32,000 nt of DNA from Geobacter sulfurreducens PCA (GCF_000007985.2 NC_002939.5:2700001-2732000); one strand, 5' to 3'; shown: positions 6,712-24,219, numbered from the stretch's first letter. A program made the numbers and translations. Notes: generated by a model from the sequence alone, not told the origin.

Positions 6712-6788
6712 AATTCCTCAGAATTTTTAATTTAAGTTCTATCAAAGAATGCGTATAGTTGGCGACATATTTTCGATGCGGGTGACCA

Positions 6789-7237: not shown

Positions 7238-7240
7238 CAC

Positions 7241-7268: not shown

Positions 7269-7291
7269 GATTAAAAACGGAGAAACAAGAA

Positions 7292-7819: not shown

Positions 7820-7842
7820 ATGACATGACTCAGGGAGGTGAC

Positions 7843-8598: not shown

Positions 8599-8628
8599 AA
8601 CCGCCGGTGTTCTCCCGAACCGTTAGGC
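8571..8628 (+). other. attC site 2 (58 bp)
   Basis: R'' GCCTAAC, L''/L' ACACCGGC / GCCGGTGT, R' GTTAGGC. R'' is the exact complement of the G|TTAGGC that opens this cassette at 7802. Confidence 0.85.
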
Positions 8629-8635
8629 AATTAAT

Positions 8636-9025
8636 ATGAATTTTGCGGAAATCATTGTAGTCGCCTTGGCGATCATCCTCATCCTCGGTCTGATTGCGAT
8701 CATACTAGGACCAATGTTCGGTTGGCGAATCGCCGCGAGGAATGAAGAGTTTATTCCATTTTCCTCCAGAATTGAGGCACGAGAAAAAATTCGTGTCGCA
8801 CTAATGGAACAAGGATGGGAGATTGAGCACGACGGCCCGGATAGAATGAAAGCTCGAACGAAAATAAGCTGGCGGTCATGGGGGGAAATCATAAAGATCG
8901 AGTTTGCCGATGGAGGCGCAAAAGTGAGTTCTGAATGCTCACTACCGACGCAAGCTATCGATTACGGGAAGAATAAGATCAACGTCCAAAAACTTGTGGA
9001 TGCGCTGACGAAAAGAAATGCCTAA
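8636..9025 (+). CDS. cassette C protein: single N-terminal TM plus a small soluble domain, unknown function
   Basis: 129-aa ORF with TM IIVVALAIILILGLIAIILGPMFGW. The stop TAA overlaps the R'' (GCCTAA) of the interrupted attC3. Weak SD. Confidence 0.65.
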   Translation: MNFAEIIVVALAIILILGLIAIILGPMFGWRIAARNEEFIPFSSRIEAREKIRVALMEQGWEIEHDGPDRMKARTKISWRSWGEIIKIEFADGGAKVSSECSLPTQAIDYGKNKINVQKLVDALTKRNA

Positions 9026-10934
9026 TCGGGTAGCCGGGGGTTTTACCCCCCCAGCCCCCACACCACCCGGCATGCGGGTCCGCACCGGGCGGTTCGACGA
9101 AGTTACCGGGCCGTGGCCGGGTAATGGATCTTCACCCACAGTTCTTTGACAGATACAAGTCCTTGATCCTTCAGCCACTGGTTGGTCATACCGTGCTGGG
9201 CGGCAAGCCTGCGGGACATGGCCCACGGACCGTTGCGGTTCAGCCCTGCTCTGATGGATGTGCCAAGCTGTACACCCAGTTTGAGCAGGTTCCGAATCTT
9301 GGTGCGGCACCACCGCCACTGCTTCCAGTAGCACAGCCGCACCCGCCGCCGTATCCAGCCGTCGATCTCCGGGATGTCACGGTAGGCTTCGGCAATGCCG
9401 AAGTACCCCATCCAGCCGCGGAGGTAGGTCGACAGCTTGTTCAGTCGGTACTCCATGGAGACGAACCAACTCCTGCCGGTGTACTTCCTGACCCGGCGCC
9501 GGAACTCCTTGTACGCCTGGTCAGACCAGAGGATTTTGGTTCCCTTGAAGACAAAGCCAAGAAAGCTCAAGTCGCCGCTTCTGGCGACTTTGCTCTTGTC
9601 TTCGTTGACCGTGAGCTTGAGTTTGTTCGTCAGATACTTCCTGACGCTCCCCATGACCCGCTCGCCGGCACGCTCGCTCTTCACCAGAATGACGAAATCA
9701 TCGGCGTAACGGACGAACTTGTGGCCACGGCTCTCAAGCTCCTTGTCCAGGTGGTCGAGGAGGATGTTGGCGAGAAGCGGGGAAAGCGGACCCCCTTGGG
9801 GTACGCCCATGCGGGTCTTTTCCAGCCGCCCGTCAACCTCCACCCCGGCTCTGAGATACCTGCCGATCAGGGTGAGAACCCGCTTGTCGCGGACCCTCCT
9901 CCCCACCATTGTCATGAGGAGGTCGTGATTGACCGTGTCGAAGAACTTGGCAAGGTCGATGTCCACGGCAATGCGGTAGCCCTGCCGCAGATACTCCCGC
10001 AGCTGCCGCACGGCATTGTGTGCCGAGCGGCCGGGGCGGAACCCGAAACTCGATGCGGAGAATTCCGGATCGAAGATCGGCGTGAGCACCTGGGCTGTTG
10101 CCTGTTGGATCAGCCGGTCAAGGACGGTGGGAATCCCCAGCGGGCGGGTGCCGCCCGTTGGTTTGGGTATTTCCACTCGAAGGACCGGCTGTGGTTGGTA
10201 GGTACCTGTTGCAAGCGATGCACGGATATCGCCCCAGAGGGGCCGGAACCGTTCGGGGAACGCGTCGATGGTAACACCATCGACGCCAGGTGCGCCCTTG
10301 TTGGCCCGCACCCGTTTCCACGCCAGGTCCATGTTCTCTGTGGCAAGTATCCGCTCCAGTAGGTGCTCTTCCGGAGTTGGCCGGTCAATGACGCGCTCCA
10401 CGGGCATTCCCCCGGTCGGGTTCGGTATGTCGTGAAAGCTCATTGGGGCTTACCTCCTCTTCATCGTTCGGCCCTTCGGCGGGGTAAGGCTTCCCGGCTG
10501 TCTGTGACGACGCCGGGCTTGTTTCCAGGTGCCGGATCGCTGGCGGCAACGTCCGCGCCTACTATGGCTTCTGCTGACTCCTGCCCCATCACGGCAGCTG
10601 TTACCAGAGGCCGCGCCAGCAAACATCGCTAGCATGTGGAGCAGGTCTCCCCGGATAAGAACGTGAACTGTGGCTACACAACCGCAGCATTTACCTTGGC
10701 ATCCTGAATCCGTGGGACTTCGTCATGTTGTGCTGACTTGCCCGGACACCCCGGCCTTGTATGCTGTTTCTGTTCGTCGGCTCATAGCTTTGCGCTCGGG
10801 CTTCCTTCAGACCCCTCCTCGCGGAGGCGCCCTTGCCGTCGGCTAGTACTTTGGTACCCTGTCTCGCGACAGTGCTGGATTCTACGTACAGGGGACTTGC
10901 ACCCCATTAGTTCACGCCCATGCCGGGCGTACAC
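9025..10934 (-). mobile_element. bacterial class C (attC-associated type) group II intron, full length (ends uncertain by about 3 nt)
   Basis: The minus strand starts GTGTACGCCCGGCATGGGCGTGAAC (GUGYG-type 5' end, c10934). Domain V GAACCGCCCGGTGCGGACCCGCATGCCGGGTGGT has a CGC triad. Domain VI GGGGCTGGGGG-GGTAAAA-CCCCCGGCT(A)CCC has a bulged A 7 nt before ...GAT. The RT ORF sits in domain IV. The 5' exon ends 9 nt after the attC hairpin stem (3 nt if the outer CGCCAC/GTGGCG pairing is counted). Confidence 0.85.
9103..10443 (-). CDS. group II intron reverse transcriptase/maturase (no endonuclease domain)
   Basis: 446 aa. RT motifs RPLGIPTVLDRLIQQA, FGFRPGRSAHNA, VDIDLAKFFDTVNH, GVPQGGPLSPLLANI, FVRYADDFVIL. 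Maturase X domain LGF..RGWMGYF. Short C-terminus typical of class C. Confidence 0.95.
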   Translation of the reverse strand: MSFHDIPNPTGGMPVERVIDRPTPEEHLLERILATENMDLAWKRVRANKGAPGVDGVTIDAFPERFRPLWGDIRASLATGTYQPQPVLRVEIPKPTGGTRPLGIPTVLDRLIQQATAQVLTPIFDPEFSASSFGFRPGRSAHNAVRQLREYLRQGYRIAVDIDLAKFFDTVNHDLLMTMVGRRVRDKRVLTLIGRYLRAGVEVDGRLEKTRMGVPQGGPLSPLLANILLDHLDKELESRGHKFVRYADDFVILVKSERAGERVMGSVRKYLTNKLKLTVNEDKSKVARSGDLSFLGFVFKGTKILWSDQAYKEFRRRVRKYTGRSWFVSMEYRLNKLSTYLRGWMGYFGIAEAYRDIPEIDGWIRRRVRLCYWKQWRWCRTKIRNLLKLGVQLGTSIRAGLNRNGPWAMSRRLAAQHGMTNQWLKDQGLVSVKELWVKIHYPATAR

Positions 10935-10985
10935 TAGCGCCACGACCGGCCTAGAAACCCGCCGGTCAGGCTTGTGGCGTTGGAA
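10935..10985 (+). other. attC site 3, right-hand part (left part is GCCTAAT at 9020-9026, separated by the intron)
   Basis: TAGCGCCAC-GACCGGC-ctagaaacc-CGCCGGTC-aggcttgtggc-GTTGGAA. The spacing of L''/L' and R' is identical to attC1/attC2 (9 nt and 11 nt spacers). The R' core is degenerate (GTTGGAA). Confidence 0.65.
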
Positions 10986-10990
10986 GAAAG

Positions 10991-11392
10991 CTAAACCGTC
11001 CAATCAATGATATTGAGGGAAGGGACCCGTAAAAACTCGCGGGTGTTATTAGTGACCAGAGGGATTCCTAACGATACAGCGTGAGCGGCAATCAACATAT
11101 CCATGGAGCCAATGGGCGTACCAGCTTTTTCAAGAGCTGCTCGAATATCTCCATAGACATGAGCCGCCGATTCATCATAAGAAACCAATTCCAAAGGAAT
11201 GATGAATTCGTCGAGGGCCTTGGCGTTTTTCTCCATATGGGTGCTCTTCGCAACTCCGTAGCGCAATTCCGAGAGAGTTATGGATGAAATGCCAATATCG
11301 CCAACCTGGTACTCTAAGAAACGCTCAAGTACAGCAACCGGCTGCTGCTTTATGATGTAAATGCAGATATTGGTGTCGAGAAGCAATTTCAT
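10991..11392 (-). CDS. vapC: PIN-domain toxin VapC
   Basis: MKLLLDTNICIYII..., acidic PIN residues, ...LVTNNTREF. ATGA overlap with vapB. The stop is 6 nt from the attC3 R' core. Confidence 0.92.
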   Translation of the reverse strand: MKLLLDTNICIYIIKQQPVAVLERFLEYQVGDIGISSITLSELRYGVAKSTHMEKNAKALDEFIIPLELVSYDESAAHVYGDIRAALEKAGTPIGSMDMLIAAHAVSLGIPLVTNNTREFLRVPSLNIIDWTV

Positions 11393-11619
11393 CAGAAGCC
11401 ATCCCGCTTGTCCAGTTCAGGTTGTATGCGCTCGGACATGAAATCGCGGGAGAATTTCTTGAGACTGCCGAAGAGGGAATTCCACGAATCGCTCCGAGGG
11501 ATCAGTTGAACGACGTTGCCGCTTTTCTTGATGAATACTTCGCTGTCTTCGAAGCGAAATTCTTTGGGAAGCCTTACTGCCTGACTTTGTCCATTTTGAA
11601 AAATCTTTGCAGTTTTCAT
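11392..11619 (-). CDS. vapB: AbrB/SpoVT-type antitoxin VapB
   Basis: MKTAKIFQNGQSQAVRLPKEFRF. GGAGG 6 nt upstream of ATG 11619. The track start at 11634 adds 5 unsupported residues. Confidence 0.9.
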   Translation of the reverse strand: MKTAKIFQNGQSQAVRLPKEFRFEDSEVFIKKSGNVVQLIPRSDSWNSLFGSLKKFSRDFMSERIQPELDKRDGF

Positions 11620-11633
11620 TTCTGACCTCCACA

Positions 11634-11795
11634 TTAATATATATTTGAAGTATATATTTCAGGTTTTAGGTTGGCAAGTAAAATTTCAACAATGATGAGA
11701 GAACGAACTCCCAACATGGCCACAAAGATCAAAACAACTTTTATGACTGTAATCTCACGGATTCAGGTAGGGGGAAGACCATTTTTTGTCGCCAT
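11634..11795 (-). pseudogene. higA-like (Xre HTH antitoxin) remnant with an in-frame stop and C-terminal truncation
   Basis: AAGGAG RBS overlapping the higB-like stop, then ATG 11795: MATKNGLPPT-TGA-IREITVIKVVLIFVAMLGVRSLIIVEIL... The stretches xREI(T/L) and LGV......EI resemble HigA N-terminus/HTH by eye. It ends after about 53 codons at the vapB promoter region. Confidence 0.35.
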
Positions 11796-11806
11796 AATAT
11801 TTCTCC

Positions 11807-12055
11807 TTAATGGTAGTCGGTTATTTCAACATAACTCGCTTCGCCGTCAATAAAACTGAAACATATTCGCCACTTCAGGAGTTCCGGGGACATCCATGGA
11901 AATATACAGACCCAAAGGCGTTGGAGCAAAGAACCCATGACGCTAGAAGAGCGATAAAGACTCGCAAGATTGAACGCCGCTTGGCTTGCAGGAGAGAAGA
12001 TTGACGCTCTCAGGTTTCGGTACAATTCAACCTTATCAAATATTTCGTGGAGAAC
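11807..12055 (-). pseudogene. higB-like (plasmid-maintenance killer family) toxin remnant
   Basis: C-terminus KWRICFSFIDGEASYVEITDYH matches the family signature WRIcF...g.a..VeivDYH. An N-terminal IFDK..ELY is present. There is no start codon at the expected N-terminus and the middle is about 8 residues short. The 117-aa track ORF begins in unrelated GC-rich sequence. Confidence 0.45.
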
Positions 12056-12137
12056 TTGACGAGTACGTGCTTTCCTCCCCAGAGGAACTGCAGCAGGTCC
12101 GCAAAGGGCTGAGCTGAGTAGAGAACGCCCGCCTCCC

Positions 12138-12167
12138 TTGACTTTCCCCCTCCCCTTCACCTACACT
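12138..12167 (+). promoter_or_regulatory. candidate sigma70 promoter of the EBP gene
   Basis: TTGACT (12138-12143), 18-nt spacer, TACACT (12162-12167). Two more TACACT copies lie downstream. Weak evidence. Confidence 0.25.
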
Positions 12168-12202
12168 GCCCCTGAGTACACTTTTTACACTCAGAGGTTT
12201 CA

Positions 12203-15013
12203 ATGGAGTCCCTTTCGTCGCACCTCCCCCTTTTGCGGGATCAAATCGTTGCCTACGGCAAGGAAAACCTTGAGGAAATGCTCCACCTGCTGGCCGAGGG
12301 GGTGCGTCTCGTCTCCGGCCAGGACCGGATCCGCATCTACCTGGAAGACCTGACCCGCGGCGTCCTTACCTGTGTCCACGCCTCGGGCCCCCTGGCCGAT
12401 GAGATCCGCGAGGTGAGCTTCCCCATCATCTCCCGTGAGGCGTCGGTTTCCAGCGTCTTTGTCTCCCAGTACGCCACCGAATTCCACTACGAGCCGGAGG
12501 GAAAACACACCTTCGACCGGGGCTTTGCCGAACGCTTCGCCATCGGCCACAGCTACATCCTGCCGGTGGTGAGCCAGGGGAAATCCATCGGCGTGGTCTG
12601 CGTCGACCGCTTCCGGCCGGGGGAGATCCTGCGCGGCAAGGGGAAGGCGCTGCTGGGCGAGTTCGTCACCTCCGTGGCCGACCGGCTCGACGTCGCCCGC
12701 ATCTACCACCAGCAGCTCCTGCTCGCCCGCCGGGTCGAGGAGTACAAGAAACGGGAAGCTGCCTCGTTCATGGTGCAGTCGGCCGTGCGCCTCATCGACC
12801 GGCTGGTCCTCGCCTCGGTGCTGGTGCCCGTGCCCGGTCCGGAAGGCTCGTCGCGCCTCGCCATCCTGGCCAGCCACTCGGAAGACCCCAGCCTGAAAAA
12901 GCAGTATGACGAGCAGGGAGAGATCGCTCTCCAGAGGGGTACCTCCCTCATCTCCCGGTTCCTGGACGACAACGCGGTCATCGCCGACGAACGGCTTCTG
13001 CGCCCGCTGTTCATTCCGGACCTGACCCAGCAGGAGCTCCAGAAAAAGGCCCTCACCGAGAAGATGGCGCTGCGCTCCCTCTACGTGGTGCCCCGCTACG
13101 AGCCGTCCAGCCGCAAGGTCATCTGCCTGGTCAACTATTTCACCAAAGACCTGTACCGCTTCTCCGACTTCGAGATGGGCCTGCTCCAGACCCATGCGGA
13201 GATGGCGGAGCGGATGGTGAACGAGATCGGCGGCGAACACTTGGAAATCCGCGTCCTGGCCGAGATCACCGAACTCCTCCAGGAGCGCAACGAAGAGCTT
13301 TCCCCGTTCCTCACCCGGGTCCTGTCAATGGCCACGGAGCTGATCGGCGCCGATACCGGCAGCATCGCCATCGTCCAGGAGCGTGACGGCGAAAAATGGC
13401 TTGTGGTGGAGGACGAAGAAGGGACCATCGTCGGGGCCAAGAACAAGTCGTGGCTCAAGAAGTACATCCCCCCCTTCAGAATCGGCGGCCACGAGCTCCC
13501 CGCCGAGGAGCGGAGCCTCACCGGCTACGTGGCCTGGTCCAAGCAGCCGAAGATCATCGCCCACGTGGCGGACGAGCAGGGGGGCGAGGGGTTCCACCGC
13601 TCCATGCACGAGCTGATCAAGAGCGAGATCGCGGTCCCCATCGTCTGCGACGACGAGGTGATCGCCGTGGTCTGCCTCAACTCGCTCAAGCCCGCCTGGT
13701 TCACGGAAGAGCACAAGCGGATCCTGCAGATCATCGACCGGCTCACCTCCCGGCACATCTCCGACGTCCAGCGGATCGAGCGGCTCGAGGGGGAGGTGAC
13801 CCGGCTCAAGACTGACGTGGCCTACAAAGACCCCCAGATCTCCTCCTACCGGCTCGGCAACATCATCGGCAACAGCCGCAAAGCCCAGGAGATCGTTGAT
13901 TTCATCAACACCGTGTCGGTGCCCCTCTTCAACCGGATCACCCTCTGGAGCAAGAACGTCCTCCAGGAGGCGACCATCGGCCTCCCCTCCATCCTCGTCC
14001 AGGGGCAGACCGGCGCCGGCAAGGAGTTCTTCTTCAACAACCTCTACAACAAGCTGAACGAGATGTACCGGGAGAAGCTCAACCCCGCTGGCCAGCTCCC
14101 CGTGAAAAAGACCAACATCGCGGCCTACAGCGGTGACCTGACCTACTCGGAACTCTTCGGCCACAAGAAGGGGGCCTTCACCGGCGCCTACAGCGACCGC
14201 AAGGGCATCCTGGAGGATGCCGCCGGCGGGATCGTCTTCCTGGACGAGATCGGCGACGCCGACCCCAAGACCCAGGTGCAGCTGCTCCGGTTCCTGGACA
14301 ACGGCGGGTTTGTGCGGCTGGGGGAAAACCAGGACCGTTTCAGCCGGGTGCTCCTGGTGGCCGCCACCAACAAGGATCTGGCGGAAGAGATCCGCAAGGG
14401 GAACTTCCGGGAAGACCTCTACCACCGGCTGTCGGAGCTGGCGGTGCAGGTGCCGTCCCTGAACGAGCGGCGCGAGGACATCCCCGACCTGGCCACCCAC
14501 TTCCTGGGCAAGCTCTACCGCACCTACCGGGGGGACGAGTCCAAGGACGCCGCCCCCACCCTGGCGGAGGAGGCCAAGCGGCTCCTGATGAACCACCACT
14601 ACCACGGCAACATCAGGGAACTGCGGAGCATCCTGCTGCGGGCGCTCTTCTTCCGCAAGGGCACGGTGCTCACCGCCGACGACGTCCGGCGCGCCCTGGC
14701 CGCGGGCATGCGCGAGTTCGCCCCTGCCACCGCCACCCAGGAGCTGAACGACCGGATGGTGACGGAAATCCTGGACAAGATCGCCAATGGCGAAACCTTC
14801 TGGGAAGCGGTCTACGAGCCCTACTCCCGCAACGCCATCCCCCGCGACGCCGTCCGGCTCGTCATCGAGCGGAGCCGCGACGCGGCGGGCCGGAGCATGC
14901 CCCAGGTGGCCCGCTACCTCAAGGCCGTGGGCGACGATGTGGAAGAAAACGACGAGGAGCGGAAGCGGTTCTTCAAGTTCAAGAATTTCCTCTATAAGAC
15001 CGTGAAGATCTGA
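12203..15013 (+). CDS. sigma54-dependent transcriptional activator (EBP) with a large multi-GAF-like N-terminal sensor region
   Basis: 936 aa. AAA+ sigma54-interaction domain: Walker A GQTGAGKE, YSELFGHKKGAFTGA (GAFTGA loop), GGIVFLDEIGD (Walker B), RVLLVAATNKDL, FREDLYHRL, PSLNERREDIPDL. About 550 aa of GAF-like repeats precede it. The C-terminal HTH is atypical. Confidence 0.9.
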   Translation: MESLSSHLPLLRDQIVAYGKENLEEMLHLLAEGVRLVSGQDRIRIYLEDLTRGVLTCVHASGPLADEIREVSFPIISREASVSSVFVSQYATEFHYEPEGKHTFDRGFAERFAIGHSYILPVVSQGKSIGVVCVDRFRPGEILRGKGKALLGEFVTSVADRLDVARIYHQQLLLARRVEEYKKREAASFMVQSAVRLIDRLVLASVLVPVPGPEGSSRLAILASHSEDPSLKKQYDEQGEIALQRGTSLISRFLDDNAVIADERLLRPLFIPDLTQQELQKKALTEKMALRSLYVVPRYEPSSRKVICLVNYFTKDLYRFSDFEMGLLQTHAEMAERMVNEIGGEHLEIRVLAEITELLQERNEELSPFLTRVLSMATELIGADTGSIAIVQERDGEKWLVVEDEEGTIVGAKNKSWLKKYIPPFRIGGHELPAEERSLTGYVAWSKQPKIIAHVADEQGGEGFHRSMHELIKSEIAVPIVCDDEVIAVVCLNSLKPAWFTEEHKRILQIIDRLTSRHISDVQRIERLEGEVTRLKTDVAYKDPQISSYRLGNIIGNSRKAQEIVDFINTVSVPLFNRITLWSKNVLQEATIGLPSILVQGQTGAGKEFFFNNLYNKLNEMYREKLNPAGQLPVKKTNIAAYSGDLTYSELFGHKKGAFTGAYSDRKGILEDAAGGIVFLDEIGDADPKTQVQLLRFLDNGGFVRLGENQDRFSRVLLVAATNKDLAEEIRKGNFREDLYHRLSELAVQVPSLNERREDIPDLATHFLGKLYRTYRGDESKDAAPTLAEEAKRLLMNHHYHGNIRELRSILLRALFFRKGTVLTADDVRRALAAGMREFAPATATQELNDRMVTEILDKIANGETFWEAVYEPYSRNAIPRDAVRLVIERSRDAAGRSMPQVARYLKAVGDDVEENDEERKRFFKFKNFLYKTVKI

Positions 15014-15207
15014 GGGCGGCAGACCGGAAACCGACGGCAAGGCCGGCCCGAATACCGGTGCCGGCCGATCAGCGCAACGGCCATGCCTGTTAAAAGACGA
15101 TTCGCGGTAGCGATCTCGCTTACTGCGCCGTTCGCCGGCGCCGGGCACCGCCTGCGCCATGACGGACCCCTTTGGCGTTCAGCCACTCGCTCCATCAGGG
15201 ATACGCA

Positions 15208-15223
15208 TGGCGCAATCTTTGCA
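15208..15223 (+). promoter_or_regulatory. sigma54 (-24/-12) promoter
   Basis: TGGCGCAATCTTTGCA fits TGGCAC-N5-TTGCW with correct GG/GC spacing. It is 50 nt upstream of ATG 15274 and directly downstream of a sigma54 EBP gene. Confidence 0.75.
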
Positions 15224-15273
15224 CAAGACATAACCCCTAACCGGCAGTTCATTCCTCGTTATGGAGGTGCTGC

Positions 15274-16974
15274 ATGAAAAAAAAGAAGGCGCATGCCGCG
15301 GGAGCAGGGCCGAAGCTGTCCGTGACCAATCCCCCCCGCACTTTTTTTGAAGACACGCTGGCGCTGTTCAATTCGAGACGCTTTGACCTGCTGGACCAGA
15401 AGATCAATGAGGCCGTGAACAAATGGCCCAACCACGCCGTGGTCTGGAAGGCGATCGGGGTCATCATGCTCATGGAGGGACGGTTCAAGGAAGCAATCGA
15501 ACCGTTGACCACGGCGGCGAACCTGGCGCAGGGCGATGCGCAGCTGCACCACAACCTCGGGGTGGCATACCTGCGGCTCGAGCAGTATGAAAAAGCCGTA
15601 CCCTGGCTGCAGCGGGCCACCAGCCTCAAGCCGGATTATGCCCAGGCCTTCGCCAACCTGGGTATCGCCCAGGCAGAGATCGGGCTTCTCCAGGCGGCGG
15701 AAAGCAACTATCGCACTGCGCTGAAAATCAACAAGGATTTTCCCGAGGCGCTCAACAATCTCGGCAATGTGCTGAATGATCAGAAACGGTATGGGGAGGC
15801 AGAGGAGTGCTTCCGGAGGGCTCTCGTCCTCAAGCCGGATTTTGCCGAAGCCCTCAATAACCTGGGCACGAGCCTGAAGGGGCTGAACCGGCTGGAGGAG
15901 GCAGAAACCACCTACCGGAAGTCCCTGTCGCTGATGCCGGATTACACCCGCGCCCACATCGGCCTGGGCCACACCCTGTTCAAGCTCCGCCAGCCGGACA
16001 AGGCAGCGGCGAGTTTCCGCCGGGCAATCGAGCTTTCCCCCTACGAACTGGAAGCCCATGACGGCTTGAGCATGACCCTCGGCGACACGGTTCCCCTGTG
16101 GCATCTGCCCATGATGAACGACAAGCCCAGGAACGATGCCTATTTCAATGCCCTGCAGGCCGCGGTCACCCCGGAGACGCGCGTTCTGGAAATCGGGACC
16201 GGATCGGGCCTTCTGTCCATGATGTCGGCCCGCCTGGGCGCACGGCACGTGACAACCTGCGAGGTGGTCACGGCAATTGCCGAGACTGCCGCGTCCATCG
16301 TGAAAGACAACGGATTCGCGGACCAGGTCACCGTGATTCCGAAACTGTCCACCACCCTGGAGGTCGGCGTCGACCTGGAAGAGCGGGCCGATCTGCTCGT
16401 CTCGGAAATCCTGTCGAGCGAATTTCTCGGCGAAGGCGTTCTGAGCAGCATCGAAGACGCAAAACGGCGGCTGCTCAAGCCGGGAGCCCGGATCATCCCC
16501 GCCCGGGGCTCGGTCCGGATTGCCCTGTTCGGCGGACGGGACATCGAAATGAACGTCCGGGTCGACGAGGTCTACGGCTTCGACCTGTCGAGGTTCAACG
16601 ACATCGTGCCCCCGAAGCAGTATGTCGGCAGGAACGATCTCAACATCGAACTGCTGAGCGACGGCATCGGGGCCATTCATTTCGACTTCATGGGCACGGA
16701 TCACTTCCCCACCAGCAGAAGCTACGGCATAGACGTGCCGATCACCAGGGCCGGCAGGTGCTGCGGCGTCATCCAGTGGATACGCCTTGAAATGGACGAT
16801 ACCTTCGTCTTTGAGAACCATCCGGCAGAGAGGAATGTGGCATCCGGCTGGCAGCACTGCGTCTATCTCTTCAAAACCCCCGTCGACGTGCAGCCCGGCC
16901 AGGTCGCGCAGATCATCGCCTCCCACGACATCAGGACCTGCTGGTTCTTTCTGAAGAAAATCGTGACCCCATGA
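15274..16974 (+). CDS. TPR-repeat protein fused to a PRMT-type (protein arginine methyltransferase-like) SAM-dependent methyltransferase
   Basis: 566 aa. About 7 TPR units (aa 40-270). Then HLPMMNDKPRNDAY, motif I VLEIGTGSGLLSMMSARLGA, post-I TTCEV, double-E-like LVSEILSSEFLGEG, and THW-loop-like SGWQHCVY, followed by a beta-barrel-length C-terminus. GGAGG RBS. Confidence 0.88.
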   Translation: MKKKKAHAAGAGPKLSVTNPPRTFFEDTLALFNSRRFDLLDQKINEAVNKWPNHAVVWKAIGVIMLMEGRFKEAIEPLTTAANLAQGDAQLHHNLGVAYLRLEQYEKAVPWLQRATSLKPDYAQAFANLGIAQAEIGLLQAAESNYRTALKINKDFPEALNNLGNVLNDQKRYGEAEECFRRALVLKPDFAEALNNLGTSLKGLNRLEEAETTYRKSLSLMPDYTRAHIGLGHTLFKLRQPDKAAASFRRAIELSPYELEAHDGLSMTLGDTVPLWHLPMMNDKPRNDAYFNALQAAVTPETRVLEIGTGSGLLSMMSARLGARHVTTCEVVTAIAETAASIVKDNGFADQVTVIPKLSTTLEVGVDLEERADLLVSEILSSEFLGEGVLSSIEDAKRRLLKPGARIIPARGSVRIALFGGRDIEMNVRVDEVYGFDLSRFNDIVPPKQYVGRNDLNIELLSDGIGAIHFDFMGTDHFPTSRSYGIDVPITRAGRCCGVIQWIRLEMDDTFVFENHPAERNVASGWQHCVYLFKTPVDVQPGQVAQIIASHDIRTCWFFLKKIVTP

Positions 16975-17036
16975 CATCCCTTCGCACGGGGCAGATCAGA
17001 CATGCATCCCGTATGTAACGTCTTAATGGTGAACCA

Positions 17037-19631
17037 ATGAACCGCAAACTGAGACGAGCCAACCTGAAAGCAAGCGAGCCGACGCCCCACGAGACCGGCA
17101 ATGTAATCAACTACATGCGGCAGGGTCGCTACGCAGAGGCGGCGCATCTTGCAAAGGGCCTTACCGAACGGTTCCCCGATCATGGTTTCGGCTGGAAGAT
17201 ACTGGGGATCTGCACCTTGCTGCTGGGGCAGAACGGGGATGCGCTGCCCCTGTTCCTGAAGGCCGCCGGCCTGTTGCCCGACGACCCGGATATCCACTGC
17301 AATATCGGCATCATCTACTATGAGCTGAATCAGCTCAACGAGGCTGAATACTACTGCCGCTACGCGCTGAAGCTGCGGCCGAACGACGCCATCGCGCACA
17401 ACAATCTCGGCAACATTCTGAGCAGCCTGGGGCGGCTGGACGAGGCGGAAGCCTGTTTCCGCCGCGCCATCGAGAACAACCCGGATCTGGCTCAGGCGCA
17501 CTACAACCTCGGCTCCGCGCTTCAGGCCCTGGGCCGCCTGGAGGAAGCGGAGAGCTGCTATCGCCGCGCAACGGCAATCAGACCGACGTATGAGGAGGCC
17601 TACGCGAGCCTCGGCAACGTCCTTAAGGAAATGGGCCGCCTGGATGAGGCGCTCGAAAGCTGGAAACTGTCTCTCGCGCACCAGGAAGATTGGACAAACG
17701 CATTACGGCGCCTGACCAATCCCCTGCTCATGGACGGGGATCTGACCCGCGGTCCCGAGTATCCCGCCGCGGACGCGGCAGAGGGACAGCCGCGGCAACT
17801 ATCGTCACATCCGGCGGCGGCATCCGTAGAGTCGCTCGACCGGAAGTATCGGGTCCCCTCCCATGGGCATGACGGATCTGCCGAAGCGGGAGCCGTTGCC
17901 GGGAGAGACGAAAACGCGCCCCGCCCCCTGCGCATTGTGTTGGTCTACCCTCCGTTGTGGCAGATACCGTCCGCGGATCTGGCCGTACCGGAAGGCATGC
18001 CGTTCGGCCCGCCCGCCACCGCCGGCGGACCGGTCGCCATCAGCAGGGAACTCAAGACCATTACCCAAGGCGTGCTGTCCATCGCGGCCCAGGCGAAAAA
18101 AGCCGGGCACGACGTCCGCGTGTACAATCTGTTCAACGCGCCCTGGGCCGACATCGTGGCCCTCATCGCCGGAACCGGGGCCGACGTGTACGGCGTATCC
18201 GCCTACAACTCCAACCGGCGCGGCATGGGTGCGCTGTGCGCCCTGATCAGACAGTATCATCCGCACGCCCACATTACCGTCGGCGGCCCCTTCGCAACGA
18301 CGCTCCCCCTTGAAACGCTGCGCTATTACCGCGCGATCGATACGGTTGTCGTCGGCGAAGGCGAAGAGACCTTCATGGAACTGCTCGACCATATCCGCTC
18401 GCACCGGCCGGCAGTTGGAATCCCGGGCACTGCGTGGCGAAACGGCGACGAGGTGGCGCTCGGTCCAGTGCGCCCCCGGATCGGCGACCTCGACACGCTT
18501 GCATCCCATTTTGACTACTATTCAAGCAATATCGTGATGACGTCGCGCGGCTGCCCTTCCAAATGCTCGTTCTGCGGCAATCCCGTATTGTGGGGACGGA
18601 AGATCCGTTTTTACTCCACAGACTACTGCATTGACATGTTCAGGAAGGCACTGGCCCGGCTGCCGGTGCCCTACCTCATGATCGCAGACGACACCTTCAC
18701 CGCCAACCAGCAGCGTACCCTGAACATGTGCGACGCGATCATCGGGAACAAGCTCGACTTTCTCTGGAGCTGCAGCACCCGCGTGGATGCCATGGAGGAC
18801 AAGGTACTGCACAGGATGAGGCGGGCAGGCTGCCAGGAGATCATGATCGGGGTGGAATCGGGGTCACCGGAGATCCTTGAGAGGATACACAAGGGGATCA
18901 CCCCCGAAATGGTCCTCACGGTGACCCGCGCGGCCAAAAAGTACGGCATGCTCGTCCACTACTACATGATGGTGATCAATCGTGGAGAGACGCCCGACAC
19001 GCTCCAGGCGAGCATCGACCTGATCAAGGCCGGTCGGCCCAACAGCTACGACCTCACGCCACTGATGTTTCTTCCGGGCACGGAAGACTACGGTCATCTG
19101 TGCGAACAACAGGGATTGACCTCGGATATCTTCTTCCGGAACGACTTCATGGATATATCCGTGGAAAGAAAGCGCAAAAAAGACCTGGATACGGTCATGC
19201 AGCATCTTTACTGCAGCATCGGAACCATCGGCGGCTACGAATATACCGTAGCGGAAAGGGAAGCCGTCGTGGAGCATCTGCCCGACGTGCCCACCGTCCA
19301 TGTGGAGCTCGCCAACGCATACCTTCGCGCGGGCCAGTTAGACAAAGCCACGGCGGCATTGACTCGGGCAGAGGAGCTGGGCTTCCCCATCGGCAACATC
19401 ATCCTCAACCAGCACGCGTGCATTGCCCTTGCACGCAATCAGATCGACACGTCCCTCGATTTCCTGGAGCGGGCGTGCCGGTCCTTCCCTGACGTCACGG
19501 TGAAGGGCAACTACGATAAACTGGCGGCCTGGATCGACAGCCGTACGAGCGGCCAGGTCAAGCCGTGCCTGCTGTGCGATTCCGTCCGGGCCCAGGATTT
19601 CGTGTTCCGCGCCGATGAAACCGCACCATAG
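17037..19631 (+). CDS. TPR-repeat / B12-binding domain / radical SAM fusion protein
   Basis: 864 aa. N-terminal TPRs similar to those of the upstream gene. Low-complexity linker. Cobalamin-binding-type domain (RIVLVYPP...VGVSAYNS...ITVGGPFAT...VVVGEGEETF). CX3CX2C cluster motif SRGCPSKCSFCGN (Cys codons 18552, 18564, 18573). C-terminal TPR-like helices. Confidence 0.9.
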   Translation: MNRKLRRANLKASEPTPHETGNVINYMRQGRYAEAAHLAKGLTERFPDHGFGWKILGICTLLLGQNGDALPLFLKAAGLLPDDPDIHCNIGIIYYELNQLNEAEYYCRYALKLRPNDAIAHNNLGNILSSLGRLDEAEACFRRAIENNPDLAQAHYNLGSALQALGRLEEAESCYRRATAIRPTYEEAYASLGNVLKEMGRLDEALESWKLSLAHQEDWTNALRRLTNPLLMDGDLTRGPEYPAADAAEGQPRQLSSHPAAASVESLDRKYRVPSHGHDGSAEAGAVAGRDENAPRPLRIVLVYPPLWQIPSADLAVPEGMPFGPPATAGGPVAISRELKTITQGVLSIAAQAKKAGHDVRVYNLFNAPWADIVALIAGTGADVYGVSAYNSNRRGMGALCALIRQYHPHAHITVGGPFATTLPLETLRYYRAIDTVVVGEGEETFMELLDHIRSHRPAVGIPGTAWRNGDEVALGPVRPRIGDLDTLASHFDYYSSNIVMTSRGCPSKCSFCGNPVLWGRKIRFYSTDYCIDMFRKALARLPVPYLMIADDTFTANQQRTLNMCDAIIGNKLDFLWSCSTRVDAMEDKVLHRMRRAGCQEIMIGVESGSPEILERIHKGITPEMVLTVTRAAKKYGMLVHYYMMVINRGETPDTLQASIDLIKAGRPNSYDLTPLMFLPGTEDYGHLCEQQGLTSDIFFRNDFMDISVERKRKKDLDTVMQHLYCSIGTIGGYEYTVAEREAVVEHLPDVPTVHVELANAYLRAGQLDKATAALTRAEELGFPIGNIILNQHACIALARNQIDTSLDFLERACRSFPDVTVKGNYDKLAAWIDSRTSGQVKPCLLCDSVRAQDFVFRADETAP

Positions 19632-19672
19632 TGTGCCGGTGCCACCCTGACCACCACTTTCCCACCCTGCAC

Positions 19673-19701
19673 GGCCCCGCTCACGCGGGGCCTTCGTTTT
19701 T
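19673..19701 (+). terminator. intrinsic terminator ending the TPR-MT / TPR-rSAM operon
   Basis: GGCCCCGC-tcac-GCGGGGCC followed by TTCGTTTTT, 42 nt after the stop codon. Confidence 0.75.
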
Positions 19702-19833
19702 CCCTCCCCGGCCTCCGGCACGCGCGGTCTCTCCGTCTTGATGACTTCTTGATGCGTTTCCCCCCTCTTTTGAGCCTGCTTTGAGGCGCTTTCCGCTAGG
19801 GTAGTAACAAAGAGTTCACGCGGGAGGACGGCC

Positions 19834-20043
19834 ATGAAAGTCTATTTTTTCGATTGCGCCACGGGCGTGTACCAGGGTGAGGGGTTCGAGGACGAGGCAG
19901 TGATCGAGATGATCGAAGGGGTCACGGTCGTGGCGCCGCCACCCTATCGCAAAGGGGAAATACCGGTCTACCAGTGCGAACGCAAGGCATGGACAGTGAA
20001 GCCTCTCTCGCCTGAGACAGAAACCGGGCCAACGCCGGGTTGA
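19834..20043 (+). CDS. small hypothetical protein (69 aa) with an N-terminus resembling tail-fibre-assembly/chaperone-like proteins
   Basis: GGGAGG 7 nt upstream of the ATG. MKVYFFDCATGVYQGEG...VAPPPY...W pattern. Host-like GC. Confidence 0.55.
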   Translation: MKVYFFDCATGVYQGEGFEDEAVIEMIEGVTVVAPPPYRKGEIPVYQCERKAWTVKPLSPETETGPTPG

Positions 20044-20261
20044 CCGGCCGTGCGGGCTCCTCTTTCGACCTGGCGGGGCCGCAGGACGGTACTTGTCCCG
20101 GCCGGTCGGTACCGAGAAAACAATCCAGCAAAACGCCGCACGGCACCGGCTTCACTGCCCCCTCACCAATGCTCCCGTTCGCAATGCAATAAGGGCCGGT
20201 CCCGGCGAGAAGCCGTAAGCGTGCTAGACTTAATGACATCGATCAATTCGGAGACTGTCTC

Positions 20262-22040
20262 ATGAACGTGTACGAATCGCTGCAAACAGTTCTCTTGTTT
20301 GTCGTTCTCCTGGCCATGGTCAAGCCCCTGGGCACCTTCATGGCCCGGGTATTCCAGGGGGAGCGGACGATCCTCTCACCCGTCCTCGCGCCCGCCGAGA
20401 GCCTCCTCTACGGGGTTTGCGGAGTGAACAGTGAAGAGGAGATGGACTGGAAGCGCTATGCCCGGGCCATGGTCCTCTTCAATCTGGTCATTTTCGCGAC
20501 ACTTTTCGCCATGCTGATGCTGCAGCACCTGTTGCCGCTCAATCCGCAGAAGTTTCCGGCCTTCAGCTGGCAACTGGCCCTCAACACCGCCGTCAGTTTC
20601 ACCACGAATACCAACTGGCAGGCCTATGCGGGTGAACAGGCGGCCAGCTACTTCACCCAGATGGTTGGGCTGACGGTGCACAACTTCGTCTCCGCCGCCA
20701 CCGGCATTGCCGTGGCCATCGCAGTTATTCGCGGCTTCGCGCGGCGCACGACCTCCGCGCTGGGCAACTTCTGGGTCGACCTGACCCGCGCGACGCTCTA
20801 CATCCTGGTACCGATCTCCCTGATCGCCGCCCTCGTCCTCGTTTCCCAGGGGGTGATCCAGAACTTCAGCGCCTACCAGGCGGTGTCCCTGGTGCAGCCG
20901 GTCACCTACGACACGCCGAAGCGTGACGGCACGGGAAGCCCGGTCAAGGACCCCACGGGAAATCCGGTCACCGAACGTGTGACCGCCAAGGAGGTCACGA
21001 TCCCCATGGGGCCGGTCGCTTCCCAGGAAGCGATCAAGGAACTGGGGACCAACGGCGGCGGCTTCTTCAACGCCAACTCGGCCCATCCGTTCGAGAACCC
21101 CACTCCCCTTTCCAACATGCTGGAGATCCTGCTCATCCTCCTCATCCCGTTCTCCCTCACCTACACCTTCGGCGCCATGGTGGGGAATACCCGCCAGGGC
21201 TGGACCCTCCTCGGGGTCATGCTCCTGATCCTGCTGGCCTCCTTTGCGGTGCTTCAGGGTGTTGAATCGGGCGGCAATCCGCTGGTGACAAAGCTCGGCG
21301 TTCACGGGGCCAACATGGAAGGAAAGGATACCCGCTTCGGCCTGGCCGGAAGCAGCCTTTTCACGGTCGCAACCACCGGCACATCCTGCGGCGCGGTGAA
21401 CACTATGCACGACTCCCTCACTCCGATCGGCGGCATGATCCCCATGAGCCTGATGCTCCTGGGTGAACTGGTTCCCGGCGGGGTCGGCTCCGGCCTCTAC
21501 ACCATGCTCGCCTTCGCCGTGATCGCAGTATTCGTCTCGGGCCTGATGATCGGGCGCACGCCGGAATACCTGGGGAAAAAAATCGAGGTGCGGGAGATGT
21601 GGATGTCGGTCGTCACGGTTTTGGCTGCCGGCGTCATGGTGCTGATACTTTCGGGAATCGCCATGATCTCTCCGTCCGCCGTGGCCGCCATGGCCAATCC
21701 AGGAGCCCACGGCCTCTCCGAGGTCCTCTACGCCTTCGCCTCCATGGCCAACAACAACGGGAGCGCCTTTGCGGGGCTCTCGGCCAACACGACCTTCTAC
21801 AACATCCTCGGCGCCCTGGCAATGATCGTCGGACGGTTCGCCCCGGCAGTGGCGGTGCTCGCCATGGCCGGCTCCCTGGCGGAGAAGAAATACGTACCGC
21901 CGAGCCTCGGGACCCTGCCGACGGACAAGGTGCCGTTCGCCCTCTGGCTGACCCTGGTCATCCTCATCGTCGGTGCGCTCACCTTTTTCCCGGCGCTGTC
22001 GCTCGGGCCGATCGTGGAGCACCTGACCATGACGATGTAG
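20262..22040 (+). CDS. kdpA: potassium-transporting ATPase subunit A
   Basis: 592-aa polytopic protein with KdpA motifs ([27 protein letters not shown]), followed by kdpB and kdpC. Confidence 0.96.
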
Positions 22041-22089
22041 GGGCGAATCTTGTATTCGCCCGCTCGGTGGGCGATCACAAGGATCGCCC
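22041..22089 (+). repeat. pair of REP-like hairpins filling the kdpA-kdpB spacer
   Basis: GGGCGAAT-cttgt-ATTCGCCC (22041-22061) and GGGCGATC-acaag-GATCGCCC (22069-22089). Both have perfect 8-bp stems, their loops are reverse complements, and the second unit approximates the inverse of the first. Confidence 0.8.
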
Positions 22090-22104
22090 CTACAGGAGAC
22101 GATA

Positions 22105-24174
22105 ATGACCAAACACGCCCCGCAGCCGATATCCATTTTCGATCCGCAGATCATGCGGCCCGCCCTGATCGAATCCTTCAGGAAGCTCGACCCCCGCACC
22201 CTCTGGCGCAACCCGGTCATGTTCATGGTGGAAATTGCCAGCATCATCACCCTGGCAACCTTCTTCATGTCGCTTGCCGGCGCGGGGGAGGAGCCGGCCT
22301 GGTTCACCGGCCTCGTGTCGCTCTGGCTCTGGTTGACGGTCATCTTCGCCACCTTCTCCGAGGCGTTGGCGGAGGGGCGCGGTAAAGCGCGCGCCGCCAG
22401 TCTGCGGAAGACCCGCACCGAGGTGATGGCCAAACGGCTCAACAAGCCGGAATTCGGCAGTGATTTTACCGTGGTCGGCGCCAATCAGCTCTGCAAGGAT
22501 GACTATATCCTGGTGGAGGCGGGAGAGCTGATTGCGGGCGATGGCGATGTCTTCGCCGGCGCGGCCCTGGTGAACGAGGCAGCGGTGACCGGCGAGTCGG
22601 CGCCGGTGGTGCGGGAATCAGGTGGAGACCGGAGCGCCGTCACCGGCGGGACCAAGGTGATCGCCAACGCCATCATCGTCAGGATCACCGCCAATCCGGG
22701 TGAGACCTTCCTCGACCGGATGATCTCCATGATCGAGGGGGCCAAGCGACGCAAGACCCCCAACGAAATCGCCCTGGAGGTGCTCCTCATCGCGCTTACG
22801 GCAGTCTTCCTGCTCGTGTGCGCCAACATCAGCCCCCTCTCCGTCTACAGCGTGAGGGCTGCCGGTCAGGGGTCGCCGGTATCGCTCACGGTCCTGGTCG
22901 CCCTCTTCGTCTGCCTGGCGCCAACCACCATTGCCGCTCTGCTGCCCGCCATCGGCATCGCCGGCATGGACCGGCTCTTCCAGAAAAACGTCATTGCCCT
23001 GTCGGGACGGGCCATCGAGGCGGCCGGAGATGTTAACGTGCTCCTTCTCGACAAAACCGGGACCATAACCCTGGGAAACCGTGAGGCGGTGGAGTTCATC
23101 CCGGTCGGCGGACACACCGACAAGGAGGTCGCGGAAGCGGCGCTCATGGCGTCATTGACCGATGAAACTCCCGAAGGGAGGAGCATCGTGGTGCTGGCCA
23201 AACAGAAGTACGGCATGAAGGCGGAGGCGCTCGCGGCAGATGCCGAAACCGTCACCTTCAGCGCCGAAACCCGCTTGTCCGGTCTTAATGCCGGCGGCAG
23301 ACAGTACCGCAAGGGGGCTTCCGACTCGACGGCCGCCTTCGTCAAAAGCCTGGGGGGAAAGAGCATCCCGGGCGATCTGGAGGCTGTGGTGGACAAAGTC
23401 GCCCGTGCCGGGGCAACTCCGCTCGTGGTCAGCTGCGACGCCGAGATTCTCGGGGTGGTCAACCTGAAGGACATCATCAAGGGAGGCATCCAGGAACGGT
23501 TCCAGCAACTGCGGAGCATGGGGATCAAGACCGTTATGATCACCGGCGACAACCCCCTCACCGCCGCGGCAATCGCCGCCGAGGCACAGGTGGACGACTT
23601 CCTCGCCCAGGCAAAGCCCGAGGAGAAACTCCGCCTGATCCGGGAGAACCAGGCAGCCGGGTACATGGTGGCCATGACCGGCGACGGTACCAACGACGCC
23701 CCCGCCCTGGCCCAGGCGGACGTGGCGGTAGCCATGAACACGGGCACCCAGCCGGCCAGGGAGGCTGCCAACATCATCGATCTGGACTCGAACCCGACGA
23801 AGCTCCTCGATATCGTAGAGGTTGGGAAACAGATCCTCATGACCCGCGGAAACCTTACCACGTTCAGCATCTCCAACGATATCGCCAAATATTTCGCTAT
23901 CGTCCCGGCGATGATGCTTTCCGTCTACCCCCAGTTGGGAGCGTTGAACATCATGGGTCTGGCGACCCCCATGAGCGCCATCCTGTCGGCCGTCATCTTC
24001 AATGCGGTAATCATTCTTCTGCTGGTGCCGCTGGCGTTGAAGGGAACGAAGTTCCGACCGATGCCGGCCGAGAAGCTGCTGATCAACAACCTCCTGATCT
24101 ACGGGTTGGGAGGGGTAATCGCGCCATTCGTCGGCATCAAGGCGATTGACATGGTGGTGGGGCTGTTTGTGTGA
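22105..24174 (+). CDS. kdpB: potassium-transporting P-type ATPase subunit B
   Basis: 689 aa with DKTGTIT phosphorylation site, [34 protein letters not shown]. Confidence 0.97.
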
Positions 24175-24219
24175 CTACGGTGCAGGGGCAATTCATGAAT
24201 TGCCCTACGGGAGAACATC

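Follow-up and report, generated by a model that had tools for sequence, protein, structure and literature searches.

A TPR-fused PRMT-type methyltransferase and a TPR-fused B12 radical SAM enzyme encoded side by side in Geobacter sulfurreducens, with relatives clustered beside OmcS-family cytochrome genes

What do the products of two adjacent genes of Geobacter sulfurreducens PCA, GSU2476 and GSU2477, act on, and under whose control are they made? Both encode enzymes fused to tetratricopeptide repeats (TPR), and they lie directly downstream of a gene for a sigma-54 enhancer-binding protein (EBP) within a 32,000-nucleotide stretch of the chromosome (NC_002939.5, 2700001-2732000). This whole stretch is hereafter called the window, and positions are counted from its first nucleotide. 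A preliminary description had proposed that the two enzymes recognize a common protein or peptide through a shared TPR module and install two chemically different modifications on it, under a dedicated activator. The explanation that our analysis makes moderately probable is that GSU2476-GSU2477 is a horizontally acquired pair encoding cytoplasmic protein-modifying enzymes with TPR targeting domains. GSU2476 is an S-adenosylmethionine (SAM)-dependent methyltransferase with a single module of the PRMT7/9 type (PRMT, protein arginine methyltransferase) and an intact arginine-binding double-E loop, expected to N-methylate protein arginine, while GSU2477 is a class-B radical SAM enzyme of an uncharacterized subfamily, most likely a radical C-methylase. 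Both belong to a wider set of TPR-fused enzymes (PRMT, the GT41 glycosyltransferases and B12 radical SAM); their nearest relatives (Desulfobulbaceae-like, about 70% identity) have these enzymes clustered beside genes for OmcS-family hexaheme cytochromes. The main new value of the work is this link, drawn by comparison, with TPR-GT41 enzymes and with cytochromes of the OmcS family; the enzymes themselves are uncharacterized members of large known families, and the promoter and operon are not new. The elements of the region, all on the plus strand, are the following:

12203-15013: open reading frame (ORF) of the EBP, 936 aa
15208-15223: -24/-12 site TGGCGC-AATCT-TTGCA, one mismatch to TGGCAC-N5-TTGCW
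15274-16974: GSU2476 ORF, 566 aa, TPR array and PRMT-type module
15274-16041: N-terminal part of GSU2476, Lys-rich N-terminus and about six TPR repeats
16042-16974: C-terminal part of GSU2476, a single PRMT7/PRMT9-type module (Rossmann fold and beta-barrel)
17037-19631: GSU2477 ORF, 864 aa, TPR, B12-binding and radical SAM domains
GSU2477 residues ~25-220: N-terminal TPR array, with an Ala/Pro-rich linker after it
GSU2477 residues 333-450: B12-binding domain (PF02310, E 5e-26)
GSU2477 residues 502-663: radical SAM core (Pfam Radical_SAM, E 2e-22)
19673-19701: intrinsic terminator, stem 19673-19692 with 8 G-C pairs and a loop of 4, tail TTCGTTTTT

Every feature that had been listed earlier for 12203-19701 was recovered in its place. 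The three ORFs are co-directional and all have a high GC content at third codon positions (GC3). The EBP gene and GSU2476 are separated by 260 nt, in which the -24/-12 site begins 194 nt past the EBP stop codon, within 200 nt of that gene as had been claimed, and ends 50 nt before the GSU2476 ATG (15274), where a GGAGG ribosome-binding site is present. GSU2476 and GSU2477 run in the same direction with 62 nt between them, and a strong terminator closes the unit, its hairpin beginning 41 nt past the GSU2477 stop codon and being followed by a T-run. No sigma-70-like promoter was found in 14800-20400, nor did the region upstream of GSU2476-GSU2477 yield a cobalamin riboswitch or any other RNA element. 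This anatomy supports a two-gene transcription unit that ends in the terminator and has a sigma-54 promoter upstream.

The earlier remark that the operon holds no precursor-peptide gene was borne out, small ORFs being absent from the GSU2476-GSU2477 unit. Between the operon terminator and kdpA lies an ORF of 69 aa (19834-20043, plus strand) whose ribosome-binding site is good; it has 72% identity in other G. sulfurreducens strains and matches no family. It was discarded as a precursor or substrate because of its place past the terminator and because no other locus links it to the enzymes; it did not qualify as a precursor gene of the RiPP type (ribosomally synthesized and post-translationally modified peptides), and relatives carry a 388-aa cytochrome at that place. 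An anti-phage defense system was also considered and set aside, as PADLOC returned generic TPR, AAA and methyltransferase matches only.

The TPRs of GSU2476 match Pfam TPR_1, TPR_2 and TPR_11 (E 1e-35 to 1e-42). For the catalytic part, a profile built from the C-terminal 310 residues of GSU2476 and 12 homologues was searched against the PDB. It matched mouse PRMT7 (E 2e-58), TbPRMT7 (E 4e-49) and PRMT9 (E 3e-41), with PRMT3, CARM1 and PRMT1 coming next, and the PRMT7 alignment covers 284 of the 307 profile positions. Motif I (VLEIGTGSGLL), which aligns to motif I of PRMT7, and the C73-E74 pair with the post-I acidic residue are invariant in the 13 homologues, and so is R30. The H-x2-M-x2-D-x2-R-x3-Y motif is also invariant in the family and has an aligned counterpart in PRMT7. 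In the double-E loop (VSEILSSEFLGEG), E122 and E131 (E-x8-E) are likewise invariant in these 13 and are matched in mouse PRMT7 by the double-E segment ITELFDTELIGEG, whose glutamates are E144 and E153. It is the glutamates of this loop that hold the guanidinium group of arginine. When the AlphaFold2 (AF2) model of GSU2476 (pLDDT 86.8, pTM 0.83) was compared with PDB folds, all of the 50 best matches were PRMTs, with a TM of 0.83 to TbPRMT7; Pfam PRMT_C gave a weak match only. Judged by its profile matches and modeled fold, GSU2476 is a genuine PRMT-family member with a single PRMT7/PRMT9-type module, and it would be expected to N-methylate arginine in a protein. The preliminary description had rightly placed both genes among the TPR-fused enzymes of these superfamilies.

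PRMT9 also has N-terminal TPR repeats, so that the TPR-PRMT architecture has a eukaryotic counterpart. The bacterial family is large: clustering at 90% leaves more than 1000 matches, and at 50% identity (E <= 1e-30) there are 696 clusters, of which almost all carry an N-terminal extension. Its members are found in Methylophilaceae, Usitatibacter, Ramlibacter, Magnetococcus, Desulfobulbaceae and others. Methylation of protein arginines by enzymes of the PRMT fold is regarded as all but confined to eukaryotes. We found no characterized bacterial TPR-PRMT in the literature, and bacterial PRMT-like "peptide methylases" have been noted computationally only (PMC3417536). Proof of activity and of a substrate for the GSU2476 family would make arginine methylation in bacteria a field of study, and would also shed light on where PRMT7 and PRMT9 came from.

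The cluster-binding motif of GSU2477 is C507-x3-C511-x2-C514 (GC507PSKC511SFC514), with cysteines invariant in nine homologues, and its C-terminal ~130 residues form TPR-like helices that match TPR proteins in fold comparison. The fold neighbors of the enzyme (OxsB, TsrM, MgmA, CysS, TokK and AprD4) are all cobalamin radical SAM enzymes, MgmA (9ccb) being among the best matches by both sequence and fold. No NCBIfam model reaches its cutoff on GSU2477: the best is TIGR04479 (PhpK family), with 137.5 bits versus 600, and HpnJ, HpnR, BchE and BzaD give further partial matches below cutoff. Most homologues at 48-71% identity share the N-terminal TPR fusion. From its sequence, GSU2477 is a class-B radical SAM enzyme with a predicted cobalamin-binding domain, belonging to an unnamed subfamily, and radical C-methylation is its most likely activity. 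It would represent a new radical SAM subfamily whose target is likely to be a protein because of the TPR domains.

Two points weigh against these chemical assignments. At the position of the THW loop GSU2476 reads S-G-W-Q-H-C (S-x-W-Q-x-C in the family) versus D-H-W in PRMT7, the Trp being invariant across homologues and the His not conserved. Class-B radical SAM enzymes, for their part, also perform non-methylation chemistry, as OxsB, BchE and HpnJ do.

If the radical SAM enzyme, or both enzymes, acted on a small molecule, lipid or cofactor, the TPRs would serve for complex assembly only. We consider this quite improbable. It is true that OxsB, TokK, CysS and AprD4 act on small molecules, that the partial NCBIfam matches include PhpK (a P-methylase), HpnJ and HpnR (hopanoids), BchE and BzaD, and that bacterial PRMT-like domains occur in peptide-antibiotic pathways (PMC3417536). 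However, all the NCBIfam matches are far below cutoff, biosynthetic genes lie near none of the examined loci, the PRMT domain is closest to the protein-modifying PRMT7/9, and the recurrent partner of these enzymes, GT41, is a family of protein glycosyltransferases. A protein substrate, as had been supposed, is still the most reasonable guess, in keeping with the PRMT7/9 homology, the TPRs, the clustering with TPR-GT41 genes and the structural likeness of the radical SAM enzyme to the protein methylase MgmA; as far as can be read from sequence, GSU2476 and GSU2477 probably modify proteins.

Do they modify the same one? The TPR arrays had been called closely related, and the peptides quoted in support were indeed found in both translations, but the arrays are only 36-38% identical. 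Each array is 33-40% identical to the TPRs of unrelated proteins and of orthologues. The similarity being generic, the step from a shared TPR module to a common substrate does not follow. Gene neighborhoods were then considered for the methyltransferase in its 80 best loci from species-representative genomes (14 of them in the closest clade) and for the radical SAM enzyme in 23 loci (20 from a metagenome scan and three looked up singly), the partner being sought within 10 kb; loci are designated here by L and a number. The expected co-occurrence of the pair was found outside this genome (L005, L011/L012, L113 and L116), but not as an obligate module, since the partner is missing in 77 of the 80 methyltransferase and 21 of the 23 radical SAM loci. 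A radical SAM gene lies near the methyltransferase in 3/14 closest-clade loci (L005, L011 and L012), and a PRMT gene near the radical SAM gene in 2/20 metagenome loci (L113 and L116) and in none of the three contexts examined singly; for unrelated genes less than 1% would be expected by our own reckoning.

The arrangement varies among these loci. The two genes are convergent in L005 and L113; in L011 and L012 the order is PRMT, TPR-GT41, radical SAM and then GT41, and in L116 it is radical SAM, TPR-GT41 and PRMT. The recurring pairs amount to about five Desulfobulbaceae-like contexts, often with TPR-GT41 glycosyltransferases. Genes of the TPR-GT41 type are the commonest neighbors of PRMT and radical SAM genes in relatives, and in the close clade GT41 adjoins PRMT in 6 of the 14 loci, radical SAM in 3. 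Speaking against a functional coupling, most members of both families are stand-alone genes, so that the two enzymes need not share a substrate. In the same sense, a functional theme sought around the Methylophilaceae TPR-PRMT genes was rejected, their neighbors being housekeeping genes (radC, coaBC, dut, lgt, cstA and ilvD).

These data bear on another interpretation, in which two unrelated enzymes were merely co-transferred and are co-transcribed, each with its own targets, the TPRs reflecting a common fusion habit. The low TPR identity, the solitary occurrence of both families, the changing order and orientation (tandem, convergent or with GT41 between) and the excess of GT41 over radical SAM as PRMT neighbor in the close clade are what it would lead us to expect. 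We nevertheless judge it unlikely, given that the adjacency is far above chance in several lineages, that the best matches of both proteins lie in one metagenome-assembled genome (MAG; L005) at the same identity, and that both families share N-terminal features, either a Lys-rich start or a SEC-C motif. The SecA-type SEC-C zinc motif (GRNDPCPCGSGKKYKKCC) is found at the N-terminus of 67/120 PRMT and 11/120 radical SAM homologues; the versions of G. sulfurreducens and Desulfobulbaceae begin instead with a Lys-rich stretch (MKKKK...). An N-terminal module common to both families hints at a common targeting mechanism. We therefore read the PRMT-radical SAM linkage as real but loose, far above chance and far from obligatory, and regard a cluster of TPR-fused PRMT, GT41 and B12 radical SAM enzymes as the more general unit.

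As for the origin of the pair, the best homologues of GSU2476 and GSU2477 are both found in the Desulfobulbaceae MAG L005, with 71% identity each, and no other Geobacteraceae were found among the 80 best genome matches. The GC3 of the two genes is 0.78-0.80 versus 0.85-0.94 in their neighbors, and the EBP stop codon is the exact point at which synteny with relatives is lost. The lower GC3, the absence from other Geobacteraceae matches and the synteny break suggest horizontal acquisition, and the pair was probably gained in this way. It is worth recording that, in a comparison with L085 and L086, the adjoining kdp region (20314-24889) is only 86.5% identical between G. sulfurreducens strains, versus 98% for the block of EBP, GSU2476 and GSU2477, and that the SNPs of this block cluster in the 3' half of GSU2477; the kdp divergence and the SNP clustering suggest recombination boundaries.

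Which protein, then, might the set modify? In the Desulfobulbaceae-like clade a gene for a hexaheme cytochrome of ~388 aa lies directly upstream, on the same strand, of the TPR-radical SAM gene or of the PRMT-GT41-radical SAM cluster. The L011 cytochrome aligns over its full length with OmcS, a G. sulfurreducens cytochrome that forms nanowires (PDB 6ef8; E 8e-70). The OmcS-family genes were located as follows:

L011, 7657-8966: OmcS-family gene before the TPR enzymes
L012, 7205-8729: OmcS-family gene before the TPR enzymes
L103, 350-1883: OmcS-family gene before the TPR enzymes
L112, 3119-4594: OmcS-family gene before the TPR enzymes
L100, L101, L104, L106 and L110: OmcS-family genes immediately before TPR-radical SAM or TPR-PRMT genes

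An OmcS-like gene is present within 10 kb in 5/14 close methyltransferase loci and 9/23 radical SAM loci, and in 0/66 beta-proteobacterial methyltransferase loci. As these genes are 34-86% identical to one another, several lineages are involved. Sigma-54 promoter sequences stand before the cytochrome gene in L012 (TGGCACACCTCTTGCT) and in L103, L112 and L119 (TGGCACGGCTATTGCT), in all four with no mismatch, and also in L011 (one mismatch) and L109 (two mismatches). In L011 and L103 a strong terminator lies 3' of the OmcS-like gene, so that transcription of the enzymes may depend wholly on read-through or on promoters of their own. Genes for multihaem cytochromes (16 and 26 haems), an NHL beta-propeller and a PPIase flank these clusters.

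Previous reports are pertinent here. The filaments of OmcS and OmcE are surface-glycosylated (PMC9473688), and in Geobacter the genes that come after OmcE clusters are of the glycosyltransferase, methyltransferase and TPR kinds (bioRxiv 10.1101/2025.10.22.684050). In PCA, omcS (GSU2504) lies ~43 kb from GSU2476-GSU2477. Judged by locus tag, omcS has within a few genes of it an EBP with a kinase (GSU2506/2507) and GSU2508, a "TPR domain protein" of 538 aa; the group GSU2506-GSU2508 (2762042-2767465) has the divergent predicted RpoN promoters 41 and 65, the latter for GSU2508, and omcS was up 2.6-fold in an RpoN-overexpressing strain (PMC2725144). GSU2508 may be a paralogous TPR enzyme. The translations of GSU2476 and GSU2477 are without signal peptides, so that any action of the enzymes on such a cytochrome would have to precede its export. 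HMW1C, a GT41 enzyme, likewise does its work in the cytoplasm, on an adhesin that is then secreted.

OmcS-type cytochromes are thus a concrete, if unproven, candidate substrate. By analogy, GSU2476 and GSU2477, joined elsewhere by TPR-GT41, might modify OmcS-family pre-proteins in the cytoplasm before Sec export, an idea that we offer as tentative and hold to be rather improbable as it stands. In support of this idea, an OmcS homologue lies immediately upstream on the same strand in the closest relatives, OmcS-like neighbors occur in both enzyme sets and in none of the beta-proteobacterial loci, and their divergence points to several lineages; the other multihaem cytochrome, NHL beta-propeller and PPIase genes, the SEC-C motif of the homologues, the glycosylated filaments (PMC9473688) and the modification genes of the OmcE clusters (bioRxiv 10.1101/2025.10.22.684050) fit as well, and G. 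sulfurreducens has OmcS, with GSU2506/2507 and GSU2508 and their predicted RpoN promoters near it. On the other hand, the PCA pair is not adjacent to omcS, the terminators in L011 and L103 leave co-transcription unproven, the enzymes are cytoplasmic and the substrate exported, and we found no report of methylated Arg in OmcS; moreover, many of the loci come from similar metagenomes and are not all independent, and cytochrome genes are abundant in these genomes. More broadly, an unrecognized cytoplasmic, TPR-targeted set of PRMT, B12 radical SAM and GT41 enzymes, many with SEC-C, could decorate OmcS-family or other exported electron-transfer pre-proteins while these are unfolded, which we likewise think doubtful enough to be stated with reserve. 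If true, no bacterial PRMT before GSU2476 would have had a defined protein substrate, and the set would constitute a maturation pathway for conductive cytochrome filaments. We know of no enzymes identified for the decoration of OmcS filaments, and the literature that we searched yielded none.

The second question, that of control, has been answered in part before. The site at 15208-15223 is "Promoter 34", assigned to GSU2476-GSU2477 by Leang et al. in 2009 (PMC2725144), whose supplements 3 and 4 give ATGGCGCAATCTTTGCA at 2715212-2715228 on the plus strand, with a PromScan score of 86 (validated promoters scored 80-88 there) and rank 34 among 110 PromScan sites. The sigma-54 promoter and the operon assignment have consequently been known, as a prediction, since 2009, and the regulatory half of the locus is ordinary. 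According to the same work, the operon is listed under both prediction and transcriptome, GSU2477 changed -1.26-fold in the RpoN-overexpressing strain, where GSU2476 was undetected and strongly consensus promoters were repressed, and primer extension covered 12 promoters, Promoter 34 being outside that set (PMC2725144). Since the unit would be read from a -24/-12 promoter, it would need RpoN and one of the 28 EBPs of G. sulfurreducens, several of which, but not all, adjoin their targets, as in pilR-pilA and at dcuB and fdnG (PMC2725144).

The GG at -24, the GC at -12 and the exact spacing are all satisfied at 15208-15223, which is the sole -24/-12 site with at most one mismatch in the window, intergenic and on the correct strand. 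Several observations count against control by sigma-54. One such match was observed in the 32 kb and 0.93 would be expected by chance, so that the motif itself is at chance level and the site is meaningful because of its position alone; by our own estimate, the chance of a match in that particular 200 nt is ~0.003. The microarray change of GSU2477 is marginal and GSU2476 went undetected, which leaves RpoN dependence as a prediction. Among 76 methyltransferase homologue loci, no convincing sigma-54 site was found in the 300 nt upstream, so that sigma-54 control is not a trait of the enzyme family. No upstream activator site emerged from the stretch that separates the EBP gene from the promoter, which has two short GC palindromes only. 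The EBP-GSU2476 intergenic region is 100% identical across other strains, and because the whole stretch 14000-17500 (3.5 kb) is equally identical, this permits no inference on selection there.

The EBP has two GAF domains, a Sigma54_activat AAA+ domain (Pfam E 7e-45), AAA_lid_14, a GAFTGA motif and a C-terminal RtcR-like region. It matches NF038230, "GPMC system transcriptional regulator", over its full length (1662.7 bits, cutoff 1200), and a 100% identical protein bears the name of GPMC-system regulator in NCBI. Its partners in that system are also encoded in the window:

1463-~2485 (region 1463-2595), minus strand: GT4 glycosyltransferase (NF038229), GPMC partner, frameshifted
2559-3371, plus strand: MBL-fold hydrolase (NF038231), GPMC partner
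3475-5319, plus strand: TIGR04442 protein, GPMC partner

The GT4, MBL and TIGR04442 genes directly adjoin the EBP gene in Geotalea uraniireducens and others, and on five other Geobacteraceae contigs the EBP orthologues, 82-87% identical, keep this neighborhood. Telling against the proposed regulatory tie, these five loci are without a GSU2476-GSU2477-type pair downstream; the genes 3' of the orthologues are unrelated (for instance a cold-shock gene, a beta-helix protein, and a phage integrase with a mobile element), and nucleotide homology to the Geobacteraceae relatives ends at the EBP stop codon. The arrangement EBP-GSU2476-GSU2477 was found in other G. sulfurreducens strains only, 98% identical over 12103-19638. 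The description of the EBP as a dedicated activator has to be abandoned, because its orthologues keep the GPMC genes and have other genes downstream. By its adjacency the GPMC regulator would still be the obvious candidate activator of the 15208-15223 promoter, an older conserved regulator beside which the pair would have landed and which may have been co-opted.

It is possible, albeit somewhat unlikely in our view, that the -24/-12 match is accidental or answers to a distant EBP, the operon not being under the adjacent regulator. About one such site per 32 kb is expected by chance; the adjacent EBP is conserved in relatives that lack the pair, the EBPs of G. sulfurreducens are many and not all beside their targets (PMC2725144), and the native cluster L011 has an NtrC-type two-component EBP nearby instead. 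Set against this are the ideal position and orientation of the site, the lack of an alternative promoter near the operon, the PromScan rank (PMC2725144) and the identity of the intergenic region across strains, although the flanking 3.5 kb share it. A predicted sigma-54 promoter, with the neighboring EBP as its candidate activator, is the reading that we retain.

Further sigma-54-like sites with one or two mismatches were seen in L001 (11622-11637 and 13047-13062), L095 (12824-12839) and L091 (13091-13106). Those of L001 lie near a TPR-PRMT homologue, before GGDEF and EBP genes, and the others just 3' of GPMC regulator orthologues, before small unannotated ORFs. No sigma-54 site was found in the GPMC intergenic regions of the window, and an ancestral EBP target suggested by the sites in L089 and L095 was rejected, since they are simply part of the MBL coding sequence at its 3' end and show no conservation. 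We found no literature on the GPMC system or on TIGR04442. With respect to other strains, where its product has 340 aa, the GT4 gene carries a 2-nt insertion near 2275 that shifts the first ~67 codons to another frame, indicating a pseudogene or a sequencing error.

The GPMC genes are parted from the EBP gene by a strain-variable insert, whose place is taken in other G. sulfurreducens strains by hipA and an RR-HD gene:

5335-12150: strain-variable insert of 6.9 kb, integron and intron
5335-6711, minus strand: integron integrase (TIGR02249, 362 bits)
~8900-10828, minus strand: group II intron, with a reverse transcriptase (RT)/maturase ORF at 9103-10443 (TIGR04416)

The chromosomal integron spans 5335-9100 and 10830-12150, with low-GC cassette ORFs that match no family (7292-7819 and 7816-8598) and attC-like repeats with GTTAGGC (7778-7821 and 8598-8641). 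Domains D1-D4 of the intron match Rfam RF02001 and RF01998 at 10557-10828, and the intron adjoins a copy of the attC-like repeat (9017-9033), within the cassette array. Elsewhere in the window, a SAM riboswitch (RF00162, 77.9 bits) lies at 113-215 on the plus strand, upstream of metX (311-1417), and kdpABCDE (20262-28179) adjoins a c-di-AMP riboswitch (RF00379, 76.8 bits; 28249-28388, plus strand) that lies upstream of the kup potassium transporter gene (28471-30288).

Set beside known systems, the locus resembles several of them in part. Units in which an EBP gene lies next to its target, such as pilR-pilA and the EBPs upstream of dcuB and fdnG (PMC2725144), show the same succession of EBP, same-strand -24/-12 promoter and target; in this case, however, the EBP comes from the GPMC neighborhood, its orthologues are without the target and the link is putative. 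The EBP is a full-length equivalog member of the GPMC system, whose other three genes are in the window, whereas GSU2476 and GSU2477 are outside the conserved set, which is here split by the integron and has a frameshifted GT4 gene.

Among protein-modifying class-B radical SAM enzymes, namely MgmA (the glutamine C-methylase of methyl-coenzyme M reductase, MCR), Mmp10 (the MCR arginine C-methylase) and the RiPP C-methylases PoyC and ApyD, the N-terminal B12-binding Rossmann domain, the CxxxCxxC core and the class-B fold are features that GSU2477 also has. It differs from them in being TPR-fused at both ends, in having neither a precursor peptide nor an MCR context, and in falling below every curated family cutoff, with methylation assumed. 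GSU2476 possesses the Rossmann and beta-barrel parts, the H-x2-M-x2-D-x2-R-x3-Y helix, the GxGxG motif and the E-x8-E loop of PRMT7 and PRMT9, and it is 29% identical to TbPRMT7, which is also a single module (TM 0.83). Animal PRMT7 (type III) and PRMT9 (type II) are tandem pseudo-dimers, in contrast to this bacterial single module, whose THW loop reads S-G-W and for which arginine methylation is predicted. Lastly, the TPR-GT41 enzymes (OGT, SPINDLY and the cytoplasmic HMW1C) have other catalytic domains, and no GT41 gene lies in the operon or in the window; what GSU2476 and GSU2477 have in common with them is a substrate-selecting TPR superhelix fused to a catalytic domain.

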